Assembly (NCBI GenBank): GCA_001600815.1 | Contig: BCKZ01000017.1 | Span: forward strand, 62,001-94,314 | Direction of reading: 5' to 3' | From: Alloascoidea hylecoeti | Lineage: Eukaryota | Length of the DNA stretch: 32,314 bases | In this document: positions 4,657 through 32,314 of the stretch, one piece after another | Position numbering within the stretch: position 1 is the stretch's first letter | How the letters are laid out: every line of letters begins with the position of its first letter | Made by a program: the position numbers and the translations under genes | The notes under the pieces: model-generated | Seen by the model: the letters and a program-made list of their open reading frames with translations, nothing else | Told to the model about the DNA's origin: nothing | Databases searched by the model: none

Positions 4657-6181
4657 ATGGACGAGACCCGTTACCAAGTATTTATCTACTTACCAGAACA
4701 TTTCTTTTCATTATAATTATCATTAACTGTTATTTTCCAGATACCGAAAGTGGACTCTCCTTGGAATCATATCCCGAATGATGTTAACGATTTGGTAAGT
4801 ATATATACATAGACAAATATCTAGATTTATAAGCATAAACGTTAACAATGATATTTAAAAGACTTCAAGATCATCTACAAGACCAGTCAACCTTCTTTCG
4901 GTAACAGTTGAAGGAGATAAGTCAGTAACAAACGATTTCTTGAAAACCCAATTGAGTCCTCTTCTTGCGAATTCAAACTTTACTGTCGACTCAATAAATA
5001 AAGCTTCTTCCAACGTGTTAACAAACCTTGAAAAATATGGGTTATGGGACTCAGTCAAAATCCAATTTGATACTGATAATAATAGTATCACTAAATCCAA
5101 TGAGCCGCTTCAATTAAAAGCAATCATTCGAGCGAAACCAAAACAATTTGATAATTTATCATTCGCCGGTACAGTTGCAGATAATGATGGAAGTACCATT
5201 TTAAGACTTTTACGACAAAATGCTTTCAACCATGGAGAATTTTTGAATATTTCATTTCTATTATCAAATCTAAAACAAATTCCAAATAAATCATATTTAG
5301 CTGATCTTGAAGTACCAATTCTTCAATCACAAAAACTAAAATTGAGGTTGTTTTCTTCAAATACAAATTCCATGAAAGTTGATAATGATTTCCCTTTTTC
5401 TTCAAATCGTCAAATTCAAAGAGGTGTTATTGCAAATTTCTTAAAGTTTACTAACCCATTTTGTTTTCTAAATGTTGGTATTTCTGGTGTACAAAGAACT
5501 ATAACTGATATTTCAGATGGTACTAGTGATGTTATAAAAAGAGATGTTGGAGATTCTTTTAAAGCCAGTTTAATTGGTGCCGGTACAATTGATACCAGAA
5601 ATTCTACTTTATTCCCAACAAAGGGTATTTACGCCAATCTTGAACAAGAATATGCAAGTCCTAACTTCTCAAGTGATGTTAATTTTACCAAAACAACTTT
5701 GGATGTCAAATCACATCAATCTTTTTTAAAAGATTTTATTACTTTCTCTTTTGGTTTGAAATCCGGTTATTTAACTTCAAACTCTCATACTTTAGATAAA
5801 TTTTATGTAAGTTTGGATGATTCAATTAAAGTACTTGATAATGATATTGCTACAAGAACTTATCATCAAGCTGGTCAAAAAGATGGTAATGATTATTTAG
5901 GTGGTGAAGCATTTACTTCTTTTTCAACTGATTTTCATATGAAATTCCCATTTCAATTAAAACCATTAAATTCTCCTTTAAGATTATATGGTTTTGCAAA
6001 TGCTGTTAATTTACAATTAAAATCTTCAAATGCTTTACAAAATTTATCAAATATTGATGAATATGAAGTTTCGTATGGTGCCGGAGTTGCATATTCTTCA
6101 AATGCTGCTAAACTAAAATTATTGTATACAAATTTTGGACCAAGGGCTTCGGTTACTCTTGGATTTGGTACAAGTCTTTAA
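4657..6181 (+). CDS. SAM50: Omp85-family mitochondrial outer membrane beta-barrel, Sam50-like (divergent)
   Basis: Exons 4657-4677, 4741-4794 and 4862-6181; introns GTATTT..CAG (4678-4740) and GTAAGT..GTTAAC..AAG (4795-4861). POTRA-like start (VTVEGDKSVTNDFLKTQLSPLL), NAFNHGE, DTRNSTLFPTKG, DYLGGEAF, SPLRLYGFANA and amphipathic beta strands ending TLGFGTSL. Confidence 0.8.
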
Positions 6182-6328: not shown

Positions 6329-6995
6329 ATGGATATGGAAATAGATCCCCCTCTAATAACACCAAGTATGTGTTTATTCTGCTTTTCTAACTCGTATATA
6401 TAATCTCTAACTTGTATTTAAACCAGATGCAACAACAAGTGAAGGTCTCAATATTGTAAAATGTATGTTTGAAAAATCGAATCAATGATTGAAACAACAA
6501 CTAATAATTGATAATTGAGTTTAGCAATTGAAGGCTACATACTTATAATTACAAATGTTCATGAAGAAGCTTCGGAAGAAGATTTAGCTGATTTTCTTGA
6601 GGAGCATGGGACTATTCAAAATATTCATTTGAATCTTGATAGAAGGACTGGGTTTGTTAAAGTATGATTATGAATATAATTATGATATGCTAATCGTTTC
6701 AATTTTTTTCGATTCATACTAATTATTTGTATAGGGTTATGCATTGGCTGAATTCGACAAATTGGATGAAGCGATAAAAGTTAAAGAGGCAATTAATAAT
6801 GCTGAGTTTTTAGGTCGTGATTTAGAGGTTGATTTTGCTTTTATAGCTCCACCACAATCCACAGATAAAAATGATAACATTTCGAATTATGAAGATGACG
6901 ATGAAAATGTAGAACGAGGAAATGAAAGAAATACTAAAAGAAGTCTAGAGGGACGATTGGGAAGGAGAGAAAGGAGTTTAAGTCCAAATCGATGA
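6329..6995 (+). CDS. RBM8A: RNA-binding protein Y14/RBM8A, exon junction complex core subunit
   Basis: Exons 6329-6365, 6427-6462, 6525-6661 and 6735-6995 with GTATGT/GTATGA..AG introns. The spliced product contains [22 protein letters not shown]...[20 protein letters not shown], the hallmark Y14 RRM, and ends in an RS-like RERSLSPNR tail. The ORF track caught only the last exon. Confidence 0.95.
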
Positions 6996-9098
6996 TGATA
7001 ATACATAAGAAAAAATTCATGTGTATGTTGAAATTGAATTATTAAAGTTTGTAATCTAATGACCTCCCAATTGATTTGCTGGAGATTTTCAATCCATATA
7101 CAGTGGATACCGTCCTATTAAACTTACAAATAATTGGTATTGGGATTTTTATACTGTTCTACAGATAGCTTAAGATGTTATAAATGACAGTTTAATTTGA
7201 TATTTATTAATAATCGATTTCAATAGTTTCAAATTCACGTTATATATATATAGACTTCTAATTGCAACTTAATTCTGATCTGAATTATAGGCGTATCATA
7301 AAGCAATATAGTAATTTTATATGGTTAGTAGCTAAGGAGTATTAGTATCATTTTGATTGGTTTGAAAAAGCAATTGTAACATTATACAGAAATATAACCA
7401 GTAAAAAAACATATATTTGGTAGATAGGGCTATAGCTCTTTTGGTCTACATCATCATAGTTCTGAAAAAAAAAAAATCTTAAAGAAGTAACCTCTTTAAA
7501 TTTGTATAATAATCATGCCACCGATATCATTGCAATTGTCTTGTTATACTTCAATTGAAAAAATTTGTATGTGGTAAAGCTACCTTGTGAATTAGAACAT
7601 GATAAGCTAGAGGTTTAGTAATTGGTGGAAATTTTGTTATAATCTTGACTAAAGGTGTTATAGTCATTTAAGTAGATTAGTTATCTGGGTAAATATATAA
7701 GTGCACTACTGTCTATTTTCAACACTGATAACTTCAGATTTAAGAACCAAGGCATCTAGCACTGATATCGATTATAGCTTATCTAATGCCATTGTTTACC
7801 GAAGATTCATTACGCTTATAAGACTTTAAAACACTTTCAATATTAATGATGAATTCTAACACTCTTATAGATATCTTTTAAATATATTTGGTGCCGTTTC
7901 GCATAAAGTATTCATATGTTACACTTCTACAGACTTACAGTGCAAGCTTAAACCGACAATATTTCGGATTTTGCCCAATATAGTCTCTTCACGAGTCTTC
8001 GGTGACCAATAAGTTTGACCAGATTGCTTTAATTAAGCGGCAATTATAACACTAATTAAGAGTACTATTGTTTCATCTAAGACATGTAGTATTTGCCAGA
8101 TACTTGTCGTCTTACCAACATCTTTGTTTCTTTAATTCTCAATTGCAATATTGAGCATGCCCAATACCCATGATAAATTGTTTCAGAATAGCTATAGTAT
8201 GATTATACGGAACGGAAGTAGTTAATATTAATATTATCAATTATGAATAACACCCACAGGGATTTGGGACCGAATATATATTTAATCTACTACTCTTAAT
8301 TATAATGTATAATCTCAGGTACAACTGCACGGCTGCAACGCTTTACTCGATCGAGTTCTTTGAAAAGGCTTTTACATACAAAATTAAAATTTTATATATA
8401 ATGATATTCAGCGGAGCTAGTGGATTTGTCACTTAATAGAATACTACAAAACTGAAATCTGATTGACATTTAGGATATAATAAATACATAATACATACGT
8501 ATTGCGATTATAAATATATAAGTTGACGATGTGAATTAGTATTCTGCGGTTACATCGATAAAGCTTATATAATTAAAACAAGATATCAATGGATACCTTA
8601 TAATTATGCAATTCTTAAGCTTTAAATATACGTACCCTTTTTTAAAAATTATTACCTTCATATAGATATAAATTAATTAATACTAAATTAATCACATATG
8701 TGAGAACTATGTCGATGATGTTGTATGTTTAATTAATATTTCATAATTAAGGGAGCCTCGAAGGGGACATATCTCAAATATGTTTCATGATCAAACAATA
8801 TAACATTACATATTTGAAGCTTATACCATATGATTTTCTAGAGTTCGCACCACTGTCCTATTCATTATTAATAGATATTTTTGTAATTACTATATGTTAC
8901 ATAAAAGCGCCTTGTAACTAAGTAAGCTTTGACTTATATAAGTTCATAGTCTGATCGTATAGATATGAAGGATCAATTTATCCTTCAGATTTTATTTTAA
9001 AAGAGAAGAAATACCCAGATTCTAATAAATATAAAATTATCATATATCTCATCTTTATAACTAAATTTTATCGTTCTAATACTTAGAAAAAGATAAAG

Positions 9099-10388
9099 AT
9101 GAATTCACTTCATTCAGTTACTATCTTAGGAGTAGCTGTGCTATTATCCTCCAAAGTCATTGCCGAATGTGCTGGTCTCTATAGTCAATGCGGAGGGTCC
9201 AATTGGGCTGGTGCGACTTGTTGCTCCGTTGGTACCTGTTCACAACAGAATGACTATTACTATCAGTGCGTTTCCACAGATGGTTCCAACATGGAAACTT
9301 CAGCTGCTGTTATTAACTCATCCCCCTCAGTTTCCAGTATCAATATTGTAGCAACGTCTGGTCCCGCTGTTACTTCAAGTTGCACCTTTTCGAGTTCATC
9401 TTCAGCCAATGCGGTTAGTATTGCCGATACTTATGAAACTACTTTGGAAACAGCTTATGTTCAAAGCACTACCGCTGATGATGTTGTTGTTAGTAGTAGT
9501 GGTCTAGAAAAAGCTGCAGGTGTCGAAGATACAACATATGGAACATTTGCTACATCCTCTTCCGCTATATCTAGTACTGTTACAGGATCTGGTACTACAA
9601 CGTTTCCCACAGCTACTCGTACAGCTGATACAGCCTCAACATGGGATCCACCTGCCTCATTGGTTACTCCACTATCTCAAGTATGGACCCATGAAATGTC
9701 AACTTACTCCGATCCCACTGGATTCAAGAATTATGGATTTGATCAAGTTATGGCCCATGAAGGGAAGATAAATTATTGTGTCAGGTGGGAAACCAATAGT
9801 ACAAAACTTACTGAGACATATAGAGCAGAAATCGAAGCTGCTTTACAAAAGCAATATTCTAAATGGATGGATTGGTTAATTGGCTATGATGGCTTTCCAT
9901 ATACAAGTGTCCCAGTATCAGTTGTTGGCTGGGCTGTTAAATCAAAGGATCTTGTTGAAGGTGATACGACTGGTCTTAATATTTATACTGATACAGATTC
10001 GGATGGTATTCCTCAATGTTCTGAAAACTGTGGTAGGTATTTCCATACAGATAATGATTATTCCAGTTGTGCAGCTGGATCAGATCAACATTATGATCAT
10101 TCACTTTGGTTAACAGAAGGTATGGATGGTGGTGCTGGTGGTGATTGGGGTCAAAGAATAGGTTTAGAATATTTCATAGATGCTGTTGAAGCTGGCACCG
10201 AAAATATTCACATTTATCTTCATGAATTAGGACATACTTACGCATTGGACGACTTTTATGATTGGATGCCGGATGGAGTCACTGAATTCATTATGAATTC
10301 GGGCTCTTCAACTGTAATTACCGACTTTGATGGCTGGATGTTTAGGGATTGGTGGACAAATTTAAAGAGTCGTTATGACCTCAGCTAG
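9099..10388 (+). CDS. Secreted protein: signal peptide, CBM1 carbohydrate-binding module, Ser/Thr linker and putative zinc metallopeptidase domain
   Basis: Intronless 429 aa. Hydrophobic signal ending VIA-E; CBM1 consensus [34 protein letters not shown] (about 9168-9272); roughly 120-aa S/T-rich linker. The C-terminal domain has [26 protein letters not shown] (10221-10253) and a downstream FIMNSG that resembles a Met-turn. Confidence 0.9.
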
Positions 10389-10496
10389 AAGATATCTAGC
10401 TATCATATATAGTGTTCAATAGATACACGTTAGTGGATCGGAGGATTTAATAAATTATTTATGATTTATGCTTTTTCAAGAATAAACTCAAAATAT

Positions 10497-12266
10497 TTAA
10501 TTTTGTAGTCTATTTCGGTTAACGTTATCAAATTCTTGTTTCTTTATATCATCGCGGTCTTTAATATACTGCTTCATTTGTTCCGCTTCAGGAGGGATAC
10601 GATCACTCCTACTATTGTACAATACTATTCCGTTATCCAAGGCATTTAATCTTTCCTCTCTCTTATAAAACCATAAAAACACAAACGAAAAAACAAATTG
10701 GCAAAATGCAAAACAAGCTGTTGTTGTATAACCTTTTAAAAATCTTGGAGATTCTTCAGTAGGAAAAACAAGAACTGATATCCACACTGAAGTTGATTGA
10801 CCAATGATGAATGCTATTAACCAAATAATTGATCTTTCTTGTCCATCGTGTCTTAAAATATCACTAAACCAACCAAATGTTACACTACATTGAGACCATC
10901 CAAAATATTGTAGACAAAAGGCAAACCATTTAGCACGTTCAGGAATATCCCAAACTGCCAGAAGTATATTTCCAATTAGATTCCAAAATTGGGAAAAAGC
11001 AATTGCACCATATCTCGATCTAAAAATATCAGCTCCAAAACAAACGATACCAACCCATAATATACCAAGCGCTGGTGTAATTGTAGTCATATCATTCAAT
11101 TCGCCTGTATTATATCTGTCTAGTGATTTAAGCCATAAAGCATAGGATCCGGAAGAAGCATTTGTATTATTCCATAAAAAGATACTCATTAAGGTAATGA
11201 TATACAACTTCCAAGATTTCACGATTTTGAGCCATAACTTTTTATTCCAAAACGAAGTATTATAATCCGCAGCTCCAACGTCAGCCACTTTAAGCCTTCG
11301 TCTAGCTAATCTGATTTCATCATCTGTTAACCAAATCGAATAACATCGATTTGGTGTACCTGGCATAATAAAAAACCCAAATATACCGACTGGAATAGTA
11401 ATACATGCATCGACTATATACATCCATCTCCATCCCGATAAGCCATGTACACCATTTAATGTTCTTGCGGTCGCACTTGCTAATAAACCAGCAGTTATAG
11501 TTCCTAACATTAAACCAGTATAATGAAGACCACCACGTCTTCCAATTTCGGAAGGCTTATACCAACTTCCAAATAAATAATTCATCCCAGGATAAAAAGC
11601 TGTCTCAAAGACGCCGACAAAAAATCGTAATGCCATTAAACTTCCTGTGCTATTAACTTTATATGTTGCAAGAGTCAATAAGCCCCAGCATATATCAAGT
11701 GCTGGGAGCCAAAAATTTAGAGGATACCTTGGAAATATATACATAAAAGGTATGCAAAAGACAATTGAACCAATGTTATAAACAGCTTGTGTATTAACCA
11801 AATCATTTCCTCTCATACCGATTTCTTCTTTCATACCAGAAACATAAGAATTTGTCAAATTAACTTGATCAATAAATTTCAGCCAATATACAATGAAACC
11901 ATAAAAAACAACGATGATATCTAATTTTATTAATAGTCTTTTTTCCTCTTTTGTTGTTCCTTTATCATACCATTGAAACCAATCATGCTTCTTTCTTTCA
12001 AATTTATTATAGCGATATTCGTATTCATCGAAATATTTCCACCATTTTCGGTTTTTCTCATCTCTATATTCTAAAGTACGAACTTTATGATCATCATTTT
12101 GCATAATTAATCCCTCTTCAATGCCAATATCAACTGTCACAGATGGATTTTTACTATCTCTTGATTTTTTCGAATGAACCGATTCTTCAGATATAATGAC
12201 CTTTTCTTCATATAAATCCTCGACTTCCCTTAGATGAGGGATCCAATTGTATAGATTCATACGCAT
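10497..12266 (-). CDS. SEO1: MFS permease of the allantoate (anion:cation symporter) family, Seo1-like
   Basis: 589-aa multi-pass membrane ORF. EYRDEKNRKWWKYFDEYEYR, NSYVSGMKEE, GSWYKPSEIGRRGG, GLSGWRWMYIVD, EESPRFLKGY and NGIVLYNS match recalled yeast Seo1 segments. Confidence 0.88.
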   Translation of the reverse strand: MRMNLYNWIPHLREVEDLYEEKVIISEESVHSKKSRDSKNPSVTVDIGIEEGLIMQNDDHKVRTLEYRDEKNRKWWKYFDEYEYRYNKFERKKHDWFQWYDKGTTKEEKRLLIKLDIIVVFYGFIVYWLKFIDQVNLTNSYVSGMKEEIGMRGNDLVNTQAVYNIGSIVFCIPFMYIFPRYPLNFWLPALDICWGLLTLATYKVNSTGSLMALRFFVGVFETAFYPGMNYLFGSWYKPSEIGRRGGLHYTGLMLGTITAGLLASATARTLNGVHGLSGWRWMYIVDACITIPVGIFGFFIMPGTPNRCYSIWLTDDEIRLARRRLKVADVGAADYNTSFWNKKLWLKIVKSWKLYIITLMSIFLWNNTNASSGSYALWLKSLDRYNTGELNDMTTITPALGILWVGIVCFGADIFRSRYGAIAFSQFWNLIGNILLAVWDIPERAKWFAFCLQYFGWSQCSVTFGWFSDILRHDGQERSIIWLIAFIIGQSTSVWISVLVFPTEESPRFLKGYTTTACFAFCQFVFSFVFLWFYKREERLNALDNGIVLYNSRSDRIPPEAEQMKQYIKDRDDIKKQEFDNVNRNRLQN

Positions 12267-29479: not shown

Positions 29480-31507
29480 TTTATATTTCAAATGGTCGAA
29501 TATGATTAAGATTTCAAAAAACTTGCATACATTACCGACACCTATAGGTAGGATACTGTATAATATTTAAAATAATAAGTCACGTGAATCTTTTCTCGGT
29601 CCTAAAAATGCATAAGAAAATTTGAATCGGCAAAATTCTATGAAAAACAAGAACAAATAAAATCTGAAGGTTAGCTTACCTCCCCATACTAGAAGAATTA
29701 AAGAGGGCGATCGTGAAGAGAAAACGCATTATCCTTAGGCTTATTATCAGGGTATTGTATCAAGTAAAAAGACTTTATACAACAAAATAGAGCCATATAT
29801 ACGCACTCTATTTGGAAACGTGTCAATTGCAAAACATCTGAATAGAGAAATAATTAAGCAACCGGGGATTTACAGTGAAGAGGAGCATGGGGAGTTCTAT
29901 GAAAAGATGTCACTAACTCCAGTCCCTAATGGGAATGGCGAATATTTCTACGAAATGTCCGAGGATATACTCCATGCGGCTCACACTCTTGAGTGATGGA
30001 CTTAATTATTGTCGCACTGGGAATCTAAGTGGAATCATTATGGATGTTGTTTGTAATAATATGGGGGTACACAGAAATCTACCAAAATTAAAACATAATC
30101 TAATGGTTTTCCCTGGAAACCGAGTTGTAGACTCTTCTCTGACTAAATCGGATGTGGATAGCTTTTTATATCATCTATATGAAGAAGCCGCTAGGCTTGA
30201 AAAGGGTGTCAGAGTCTATGACAGTTATTCGAAAAAGGTGAAATCAGTAAGGGTGTATATTAACAAACTCTGTGGTGATATTCCAGGTACAGCAAAGCTC
30301 CTTCAATTTGGATTACATACGGCATCAACCCCATGCAGATTTTGTCTAATAAAAAAATCAGTATCATCAATTCCTAACACAGATGGAAGATTACGCGGTG
30401 TGATTAACTGTGAATCGCATAGAAATACTACTTGTATTGTCTCTGCAGAGCCACGCACAGTGGAAAATTATAATCAAACATTAGAATCATTGAAGGATCC
30501 GAACATCTCGAAGGAAACCAAAATGAATATCAGAAAGGATAGTGGTATCACTGGTTCATCAAAATTATTCTTTTTGTCAGCATTTAAATTATGCAGTTCT
30601 GCCCCCGTTGACTATATGCTTAATGTTCGAAAATCTGGGGAGAACGGTGGTTCTAAGGAGTCTGTTGGGCAAATTTGATGAGCCGCACATTGAATTGAAG
30701 CTTCAGCTTTCTAATAGTGAACTGAAACGTTTGGATAAGCTGTTAGTTACTAGTAACAGCAGTCTACCATTCCAAGGGTTTGGGAGGCCATTTCATACTG
30801 GGATAATGTTAGGAAAAGGATATCTTACTGCGGAATGTGTCAGCAATCTGCTCAATATACTACCATCATTGTTGTTTACTAATAACTTCAACATTCATCC
30901 TGATCATCTTACGCTTATGAATATGTTGTATCAGATTCATACAATATGCACTTTAACTGAAAACACAACGGAAACCATTGCTAAACTGGAAGCCATAATT
31001 AAAAAGTTTATACCTGCCTATGAAAAGTTATATAGTGTTCACATTGACTCATATGGGTTGGCCCGAGGTACCATGCCGATTCATTACCTTTGTCACCTTC
31101 CGCAGCAATTAAAGGACTGGGGGAGTATTACCAGCAATTGGTGCTTTGCTACTGAAAGATCGGTGAAAGAGCATAGAGACAGGTACAAACCCAATCGCTT
31201 TGGTCTCTGCAGCTGCAGTTGGTCAGCATCTTATTCCAATATATCAAAGTTAAGCCAAATAGCTATTCAAGATGCGGTAGAAATCTTTGGGAAACAAAAA
31301 GGTACTGTTACGCCTACCAGAGAGAACACATCATTTGTATTCAACAATCAACAGAAGCATGCATTAGCGACTTATCTTTATAAATCAAATGAATTCCCGG
31401 AAATTCGTTCAGCCCAAGAAGCCAAAGAGATAGTTAAGAACACATTGTCTAAGCTTCATATTTATAATCGGTTTCAAATACCATTCACAGAAGAGATTAT
31501 AAATCTC
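29480..31507 (+). mobile_element. CACTA/En-Spm (CMC) superfamily transposase pseudogene, frameshifted and 3'-truncated
   Basis: The joined frames read ..YNKIEPYIRTLFGNVSIAKHL..HGEFY.. / RLTLLSDG..DSFLYHLYEEAARLEKGVRVYD..CGDIPGTAKLLQFGLHTASTPCRFC..PVDYM / (H)LMFENL..IHYLCHLPQQLKDWGSITSNWCFATER. These are Transposase_21(Tnp2)- and DUF4218-like motifs. Frameshifts lie near 29965 and 30620, with several stops in 29480-29738. No terminal inverted repeat was identified. Confidence 0.85.
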
Positions 31508-32314
31508 TTACATCTTCCACATCAATCACATGAGTCGTTGTGGGGATATTAGGACCAGTCTGAAACGATCGAATATATGTACCATTAAAATTATATTCCA
31601 GCAGCTGGGGTCTATGTTAAACCAAAAGCAACTGCTGTTGCTTGAATCCAGTCACTAAGCTGATTACGATACCATATTGGATTTCCATGACACCTCTATT
31701 CAATTTGTGGTACATTATTGCATTGGTATCCCTATTACCATGATGAGTTTGATTGAGATTTATAATCTCTTCTGTGAATGGTATTTGAAACCGATCATAA
31801 ATATGAAGCTTAGACAACTTAACTATCTCTTTGGCTTCTTGGGCTGAACGAATTTCCGGGAATTCATTTGATTTATAAAGATAAGTCGCTAATGCATGCT
31901 TCTGTTGATTGTTGAATACAAATGATGTGTTCTCTCTGGTAGGCGTAACAGTACCTTTTTGTTTCCCAAAGATTTCTACCGCATCTTGAATAGCTATTTG
32001 GCCTAACTTTGATATATTGGAATAAGATGCTGACCAACTGCAGCTGCAGAGACCAAAGCGATTGGGTTTGTACCTGTCTCTATGCTCTTTCACCGATCTT
32101 TCAGTAGCAAAGCACCAATTGCTGGTAATACTCCCCCAGTCCTTTAATTGCTGCGGAAGGTGACAAAGGTAATGAATCGGCATGGTACCTCGGGCCAACC
32201 CATATGAGTCAATNTGAACACTATATAACTTTTCATAGGCAGGTATAAACTTTTTAATTATGGCTTCCAGTTTAGCAATGGTTTCCGTTGTGTTTTCAGT
32301 TAAAGTGCATATTG
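31508..32314 (-). mobile_element. Second, inverted copy of the same transposase (3' portion; continues beyond the window)
   Basis: The reverse complement of 31755-32314 matches 30942-31507 except for a 6-nt indel, at least two substitutions and one N. 31508-31754 continues the minus-strand reading (NQTHHGNRDTNAIMY..YGIVISLVTGF..). Confidence 0.88.

Follow-up and report, generated by a model that had tools for sequence, protein, structure and literature searches.

The catalytic site of snapalysin, a small neutral protease of Streptomyces, comprises an HExxH motif, an aspartate six residues past the second histidine and a conserved methionine further downstream, as described in the available part of PMC3890501. 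Secreted proteases fused to a CBM1 are described in the excerpted text of PMC10084794 for Aphanomyces euteiches, which releases C1A:CBM1 cysteine proteases in the pea apoplast. In Geotrichum candidum, the GH45, LPMO and polygalacturonase families were reported to be amplified, and the phylogenetically discordant genes of this species were read by Morel et al. as cases of retention (PMC4479816, accessible portion). The role of peptidases in the decay of plant biomass is itself described as not understood in the part of PMC7679414 at hand.

The window, meaning the whole stretch of 32,314 nucleotides analysed here, carries a gene in which a CBM1 is joined to a metallopeptidase-like domain; the gene is real, and it belongs to a widespread, unstudied family. 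It occupies 9099..10388 of the forward strand (P0001) as a single open frame of 429 codons from ATG to TAG, for which no intron needs to be assumed, and its product of 429 aa is predicted to be secreted. The N-terminus is hydrophobic (nine-residue Kyte-Doolittle values up to 2.8) and is read as a signal peptide of about 23 residues (9099..9167, +; cleavage site placed by eye), its DNA being 81% identical to the beginning of a second host copy, L002; hydropathy along the whole protein revealed no membrane segment past it. The six-cysteine CBM1 follows at residues 24-58 (9168..9272, +) and matches PF00734 over residues 27-54 with an E-value of 6.5e-9 and 36 bits, the curated cut-off being 20.6. 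It can be aligned to solved CBM1 structures with its cysteines (24, 31, 41, 42, 47 and 57) and aromatic face conserved, and Y28, Y53 and Y54 line up with the tyrosines through which the Cel7A CBM1 binds cellulose. A Ser/Thr-rich linker, assigned by composition, spans residues 59-177 (9273..9629, +), with Ser and Thr making up 41.5% of residues 60-177; none of the dibasic pairs KR, RR, RK or KK occurs within it, so the CBM1 probably stays attached to the catalytic domain. The latter covers residues 178-429 (9630..10385, +; 252 residues) and includes the putative zinc-site motif H375-E376-L-G-H379-T-Y-A382-L-D-D385 (residues 375-385; 10221..10253, +) and the presumed Met-turn residue M399 (10293..10295, +). 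An earlier note on this DNA had read from the letters a signal peptide, a complete CBM1, a Ser/Thr linker and an HExxH domain with a downstream Met, all within one intronless gene, and each of these features was recovered.

Upstream lies a spacer of 2103 bp (6996..9098) in which no ORF starting with ATG reaches 100 aa, in agreement with the gene-free 2.1 kb noted earlier. Beyond it stands an intron-split RRM gene, which is probably Y14-like, and downstream of the peptidase gene an MFS transporter gene is found on the opposite strand. Elsewhere in the window, an Omp85-family ORF (4859-6181) runs for 440 aa from stop to stop with its first in-frame ATG only at 5372, which probably signals a 5' intron. 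At the far end (29929-32183), fragments resembling Transposase_21 (tnp2) were seen through a weak Pfam match, a segment being present twice, once on each strand (30623-31552, +, and 31617-32183, -), and the synonymous third-position GC content (GC3s) of the region, 0.30-0.36, lying above that of the host genes.

No Pfam or NCBIfam model matched the catalytic domain, a PDB sequence search returned no family, and the best PDB profile match reached an E-value of only 0.12, with no solved structure among the family members. For the window protein, none of the Pfam or NCBIfam peptidase families considered (M7, M10, M12, M35, M43, M54, M57 and M64) gave a match above cut-off; weak Reprolysin_5 matches were obtained in 27 of 133 aligned members, the best at 0.001 and none at the curated cut-off. 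Judged by sequence profile, the peptidase lies outside every named family comparable here. A literature search returned no study of the family and no reported activity (supplements may list members), and the available main texts of PMC8035641, PMC3320895, PMC4645717, PMC9020665, PMC3948071 and PMC8254220 contain nothing attributable to it.

Among the 133 aligned members, H375, E376, H379, D385 and M399 are conserved in 131, 132, 131, 128 and 128, respectively. The glycine of the HExxHxxGxxH/D signature is absent from the window protein, where the earlier note had spotted an alanine instead; since 71 of the 133 members have Gly and 55 have Ala at position 382, A382 represents a family-level variant and not decay. 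By sequence position, D385 lies six residues past H379, the spacing of the metzincin third ligand (usually His, Asp in snapalysin), and M399 follows another 14 residues on, which in the predicted model puts it after the active-site helix and ahead of the C-terminal one in order along the chain. This model, built from the 133-row alignment (pLDDT 97.4, pTM 0.93), consists of five main strands, a backing helix, the active-site helix bearing HExxH (domain-model positions 194-203) and a C-terminal helix. When it was compared with 48,161 chains by VIA-align, ranks 1-30 were all zinc metallopeptidases by title, headed by ADAMTS5 (Z 8.3, rmsd 3.6, 162 aligned) and followed by proMMP-9 (7.9), ulilysin (7.7), snapalysin (6.6) and OgpA (6.2). 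The best Foldseek matches were ADAM and reprolysin domains (E 6e-4, TM about 0.35). In the ESM Atlas, the clusters found at 0.95 shared no Pfam family, and those found at 0.84-0.86 were reprolysin-like. For a structural comparison such values are modest (Z 8.3, TM about 0.35, 12% identity); motif and predicted fold together nonetheless make a well-founded case that the domain is metzincin-like with Asp as its third ligand, as the earlier note had proposed.

The homolog search gave 717 matches, the best 120 of which comprise the window protein, one paralog, 104 named filamentous fungal proteins and 14 others. All 104 named matches within these best 120 belong to filamentous ascomycetes and basidiomycetes at 57-70% identity, with Schizophyllum commune the closest. 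Bacterial genomes hold at least 535 relatives, of which the best 80 are nearly all actinobacterial (53-58% identity); proteins of oomycetes called 'neutral zinc metallopeptidases' are more distant members, and a metagenome scan yielded five loci, none closer than 58%. Modules were scanned in 82 of 150 listed representatives, picked for coverage or length, and the fusions found there were to dockerin (12), ricin/CBM13 (5), CBM2 (4), F5/8 (4) and CBM1 (3), with one case each of CBM3, a PL10 pectate lyase and GH43; no chitin-binding module was encountered among the 82. On this point the earlier note is supported, having placed the family in filamentous ascomycetes, oomycetes and bacteria and having mentioned its fusion to CBM2 or dockerin. 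A CBM is missing from most fungal members, as it is from the host copy L002.

Bacterial gene neighbourhoods were examined through 99 ORFs from 19 loci together with 78 of 112 further cluster representatives (the 34 left out being mostly short). Of 80 loci, most of them actinobacterial, 12 have a PL1, PL3, PL11, GH43, GH51 or GH127 enzyme within 4 kb (these represent 8 of the 24 linked contexts), and pectin or arabinan enzymes are absent from the vicinity of the other 68. GH43 or PL1 occurred in six contexts against 0.36 expected from the density in 20 of these genomes, a comparison for which the families were picked post hoc and in which secreted CAZymes cluster in any case. The GH5/GH18 control (none seen, 0.23 expected) is too weak to show specificity for pectin. 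In five Streptomyces loci (L042, L045, L067, L095 and L097), the peptidase sits in a block with GH127, GH43 and PL1, all three enzymes being present in two of the five and subsets elsewhere; this block is the best operon-level lead to a substrate. In Actinoplanes, the peptidase gene (L058:4763-6886) is flanked by a GH43 gene and a DUF6055-CBM2 gene. DUF6055 is another uncharacterised HExxH family, with no similarity to the peptidase past the HExxH motif.

That the host is a budding yeast, as the earlier note held, is supported by the chitin synthase gene (CHS3) of the window, for which every named match among the best 120 listed belongs to Saccharomycotina. A quick 39-row tree joins the host to one other protein, P0122 (89%), on a long branch that stands by itself, placed between a Dipodascales/Trichomonascales/Lipomyces group and the crown yeasts; the tree contained no named members of Alloascoideales, Sporopachydermiales or Ascoideales, and we take the placement to be compatible with small orders such as Alloascoideales or Sporopachydermiales. 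Window DNA was detected in four of ten listed sequencing runs from three studies, one run possibly being the source and another being a wood-decay metagenome, two contigs of which span 6525-9749 and 10328-12256 with zero differences. No RNA run was among those listed as carrying the DNA, and two RNA runs yielded no match to it, a result that speaks neither for nor against expression. The two metagenome contigs join the gene to both of its yeast neighbours, and the gene is therefore no contaminant.

The genome carries three copies of the gene, a point overlooked in the earlier note. L002 lies on the same contig about 40 kb away, is 93% identical and has no CBM1, whereas L003 lies on another contig, is 78% identical and bears an N-terminal CBM1. 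Catalytic-domain dN/dS values between the host copies are 0.19 and 0.10, the second at a dS of 1.5, near saturation; the copies are under purifying selection. Because the more distant L003 keeps its CBM1, and L002 shares its signal peptide and part of its linker with the window gene, L002 has most simply lost the module. Directly before its catalytic domain, L002 (1501-2556, -) has a repeated basic spacer of TTARK units, which was also seen in two independent runs. As for composition, the window gene was thought to be GC-richer than its neighbours, and its total GC of 0.409 does exceed the 0.263-0.368 of eight housekeeping genes. GC3s, at 0.229, falls within the range of these same genes (0.146-0.236), and the codon distance of 0.24 falls inside the host range of 0.17-0.30, so GC richness was discarded as a signal of transfer; the raised total GC is attributed to amino-acid content, the same effect being present in host GH45 genes.

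The host is well provided with cellulose-binding modules, with 15 CBM1 matches in 12 ORFs. Six of these ORFs are GH45 genes and one is a GH5 gene (L006:76-1686, -), which we take to be mannanase-like; the others are one gene ending in a Ser/Thr tail, two peptidase genes and a tandem pair. The tandem genes (L015-L018, G000:C3:1157693-1163794) are near-identical, each having two CBM1, and judged by eye their C-terminal domains resemble expansins or loosenins. Beyond its CBM1, the product of the Ser/Thr-tail gene (L010:859-1788, -) has just a long Ser/Thr stretch and a hydrophobic terminus, and it may be a wall-anchored cellulose adhesin devoid of a catalytic domain. The host also has two AA9 LPMO genes and seven full-length GH28 polygalacturonase genes. 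The AA9 pair (L110 and L111, G000:C5:880335-884185), with identical scores, opposite strands and a distance of about 2.6 kb, is an inverted duplication at which no CBM1 match was found; the GH28 matches lie at L106-L109 and on other contigs, and contig C8 holds broken GH28 pieces carrying stops. GH43 gave no match in the host genome, so the host may be without the arabinan enzymes seen beside the gene in bacteria; GH7 and DUF6055 likewise gave none, and as the control genomes gave none either, these two negatives do not establish absence. Queried with a host GH45, the same type of search listed eight named yeast clusters among 120, from three genera. Given the CBM1-GH45 proteins of Ascoidea, Geotrichum and Ambrosiozyma, CBM1 is uncommon yet established in yeasts; the earlier view that it is very rare in Saccharomycotina is weakened, the module being anything but exotic in this genome.

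The source of the CBM1 in the window protein, which the earlier note had also missed, lies most likely in this very kit. CBM1 was detectable in 42 of 124 homologs checked, the query included, and stands at the C-terminus in 40 of 40 filamentous homologs but at the N-terminus in both CBM1-bearing host copies. The window module is 82% identical to the CBM1 of the host GH45 L007 (75% in DNA) and on average 70% identical to nine host modules, as opposed to at most 62% and on average 47% for the CBM1s of homologous peptidases; it is of the N-terminal six-cysteine type known in yeast and Mucorales GH45. From the N-terminal position and the nearness to host GH45 modules, the fusion was most likely made within the host lineage, and a CBM1 grafted locally from the organism's own cellulase kit is apparently the new element here. 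Gene conversion of an older N-terminal CBM1 could have produced the same likeness.

With regard to the catalytic domain, the gene sits among fungi and not among bacteria, and the trees do not separate transfer from ancestral retention. In the bootstrapped tree (36 of 116 rows, long-branch, fragmentary and redundant ones having been dropped, as they were for a quick tree of 58 rows), the three host copies form one clade (100/99) inside a fungal clade (100/100), with an unsupported sister and a fungal backbone that is a polytomy. A tree of 322 rows brought no other fetched protein into the host clade. Quick trees suggested a sister group (SH-aLRT 83-85) of Schizophyllum and Cylindrobasidium, joined by Aplosporella and once also by Rhizina; this grouping collapsed in the 36-row tree, and consequently no donor is named. 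The balance is slightly in favour of an old horizontal transfer, with a filamentous fungus as donor, either of Pezizomycotina or a wood-decay Agaricomycete, with later adoption of host codon usage, to which we would give roughly an even chance. This preference stems from the lack of listed yeasts despite a working positive control: none of the 104 named matches in the best 120 of 717 is a yeast and none of the 14 others joins the host clade, while the same search lists the eight yeast clusters for GH45 and nothing but yeasts among the named matches for CHS3. The 57-70% identity to filamentous fungi, best for Schizophyllum commune among the matches listed, and a host branch that is not long in the peptidase tree, yet long for CHS3, point the same way, and joining the host to Schizophyllum and Cylindrobasidium costs just 1.8 log-likelihood units (p-AU 0.49). 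Weighing against transfer are the missing donor and the polytomy, the host-like base composition and the 597 of 717 matches beyond those listed, which could include divergent yeast members. Retention since the split of yeasts from Pezizomycotina, as for GH45, AA9 and GH28, with loss in nearly all other yeasts, comes close behind at slightly under even, owing to the early branching of the host and its GH45, LPMO and polygalacturonase kit, the same as that of Geotrichum candidum (PMC4479816, accessible portion). The constrained trees were not rejected by AU tests (p was 0.068 for the host with Pezizomycotina, 0.105 for Pezizomycotina alone and 0.138 for the host outside all filamentous fungi), but the vertical trees fall short by 31-40 log-likelihood units, and losses would be needed in all other sampled yeasts, the keepers of CBM1-GH45 included. 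The horizontal acquisition proposed in the earlier note is accordingly plausible, there being no yeast among the named matches listed, with vertical inheritance left standing beside it. Assembly contamination or a recent bacterial transfer, to which the intronless gene and the bacterial relatives at 53-58% identity might point, is extremely improbable. Contamination is ruled out by the presence of three divergent copies, spread over two contigs and surrounded by yeast genes, by host-like composition and codon usage and by the independent metagenome contigs bridging to both neighbours with no differences, and a bacterial donor is not favoured by trees that group the host with fungi at 100/100, even if the constraint placing it between bacteria and the other fungi (p-AU 0.138) was not rejected.

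As to function, the reading that we favour, with a measured degree of confidence, is that of a cellulose-anchored endopeptidase cutting plant-wall proteins, probably glycoproteins of the pectic matrix. The protein would be secreted and would act as a zinc endopeptidase, its metzincin-type family being so far unclassified. Once the signal peptide has been removed, the CBM1 would bind cellulose, and an O-glycosylated linker, as in CBM1 enzymes, would let the catalytic domain reach nearby material. H375, H379 and D385 would bind zinc, E376 would activate water and M399 would underlie the site; it is from motif and fold that we infer these roles. Its substrates would be proteins held in the plant wall, for example structural glycoproteins of the pectin-rich matrix, cleavage of which may loosen the wall for the GH45, GH5, AA9 and GH28 enzymes of the yeast and make nitrogen available to it in wood. 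In the history that goes with this reading, a catalytic domain of fungal stock would have received a CBM1 from the cellulase kit within the yeast lineage, and the fused gene would then have been duplicated twice, one copy losing its CBM1. The dockerin, CBM, PL10 and GH43 fusions, the bacterial pectin and arabinan neighbours, the host kit and the occurrence in a wood-decay metagenome all speak for a plant-wall role; counting against it, the fold reveals no substrate, and most bacterial loci and fungal members are without a wall link or a CBM.

Those many members without a binding module would be accommodated by a broad scavenging protease, or by one cutting plant-defence proteins or the wall-bound enzymes of the host itself, in which the CBM1 merely holds the protein on wood. 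Such a role is on balance unlikely, though it deserves consideration: CBM1-bearing proteases of another class exist in Aphanomyces euteiches (PMC10084794, excerpted text), and peptidases with unclear roles are induced on lignocellulose (PMC7679414, part at hand), whereas conservation across kingdoms (53-58% to actinobacteria) and the PL10 and GH43 fusions suggest a narrower, wall-linked substrate. It is improbable that the metzincin fold cleaves a non-peptide bond, such as an ester or amide, in a wall polymer and represents an unrecognised carbohydrate-active enzyme; the modules and neighbours are CAZyme-like, but the top structural matches are all peptidases and the full peptidase site is conserved. 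Some CBM1 modules bind chitin. Dead wood, moreover, is a competitive habitat (PMC12684719, available part), and a chitin-targeted protease attacking the walls of competing fungi, as the earlier note had entertained, is conceivable at a slightly lower level still; that suggestion found no support in the family modules, none of the 82 scanned representatives having a chitin-binding module, nor any chitinase among the scanned bacterial neighbours (only 0.23 GH5/GH18 expected), and the CBM1 most likely derives from endoglucanases. Within the preferred plant-wall reading, a more specific and rather doubtful proposal is that the family consists of plant-wall glycopeptidases acting on arabinosylated glycoproteins (extensins or arabinogalactan proteins), and that the yeast obtained its gene from a co-habiting filamentous fungus and re-tethered it with its own CBM1. 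If true, this would explain the CBM1, CBM2, CBM3, CBM13, dockerin, PL10 and GH43 fusions and the GH43, GH51, GH127 and pectin-lyase neighbours, and the re-tethering would mean that one architecture was assembled convergently, with its modules the other way round.

The family is conserved from cellulosome-type bacteria to fungi and oomycetes, has neither a Pfam model nor a solved structure, and is repeatedly tied to plant-wall modules, which makes it a promising candidate for the activity against wall proteins that is missing from the picture of plant-biomass decay. The yeast gene is convenient for testing, since it is intronless, predicted to be secreted and accompanied by a natural CBM-less paralog. 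For yeast evolution, it would add a case of a cellulose-binding module moved to a new catalytic domain, in a host lineage whose mould-like set of wall-degrading enzymes was either kept or regained.

Relatives are known under other names: the 'cellulose-binding family II protein' of fungi such as Botryosphaeria, Drepanopeziza and Fusarium (FG05_08003) and the 'neutral zinc metallopeptidase' of Phytophthora and Globisporangium are members of the same uncharacterised family. Fungal members share the catalytic domain at 57-70% identity, with HExxH-x5-D and the Met common to both, and differ from the yeast protein in their C-terminal CBM1 (40 of 40 filamentous cases), the yeast module being N-terminal and six-cysteine; the yeast is further set apart as the sole yeast member among the matches listed and by its three copies. 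Among named peptidases, snapalysin (M7; PDB 1c7k, 4hx3) aligns over 119 residues with a Z of 6.6 and an rmsd of 3.8, but it has 132-134 aa where the window domain has 252, its likeness is confined to the motif (E 0.12), and the window protein has no PF02031 match. The best fold matches, at Z 7-8.3, are reprolysin/ADAM/ADAMTS (M12B), matrixin (M10), pappalysin (M43) and astacin (M12A), which differ in having His as third ligand in place of Asp and are 9-16% identical to the window domain. The gut-bacterial O-glycopeptidases OgpA and Amuc_1438, which we take to be glycan-recognising zincin peptidases, rank no higher than other metzincins (Z 6.2 and 6.0), and their substrate is animal mucin-type glycoprotein, without a plant-wall role. 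The Aphanomyces C1A:CBM1 proteases are likewise secreted and tethered to a CBM1, although these belong to an unrelated catalytic class, carry the CBM1 at the C-terminus and come from an oomycete pathogen. The GH45 enzymes of Ascoidea and Geotrichum bear the same N-terminal six-cysteine type of CBM1 as the window protein, and the GH45, LPMO and polygalacturonase set of Geotrichum candidum matches that of the host; a peptidase-type domain is not among the matches listed for these two yeasts, whereas in the host it is to this domain that the CBM1 has been joined.
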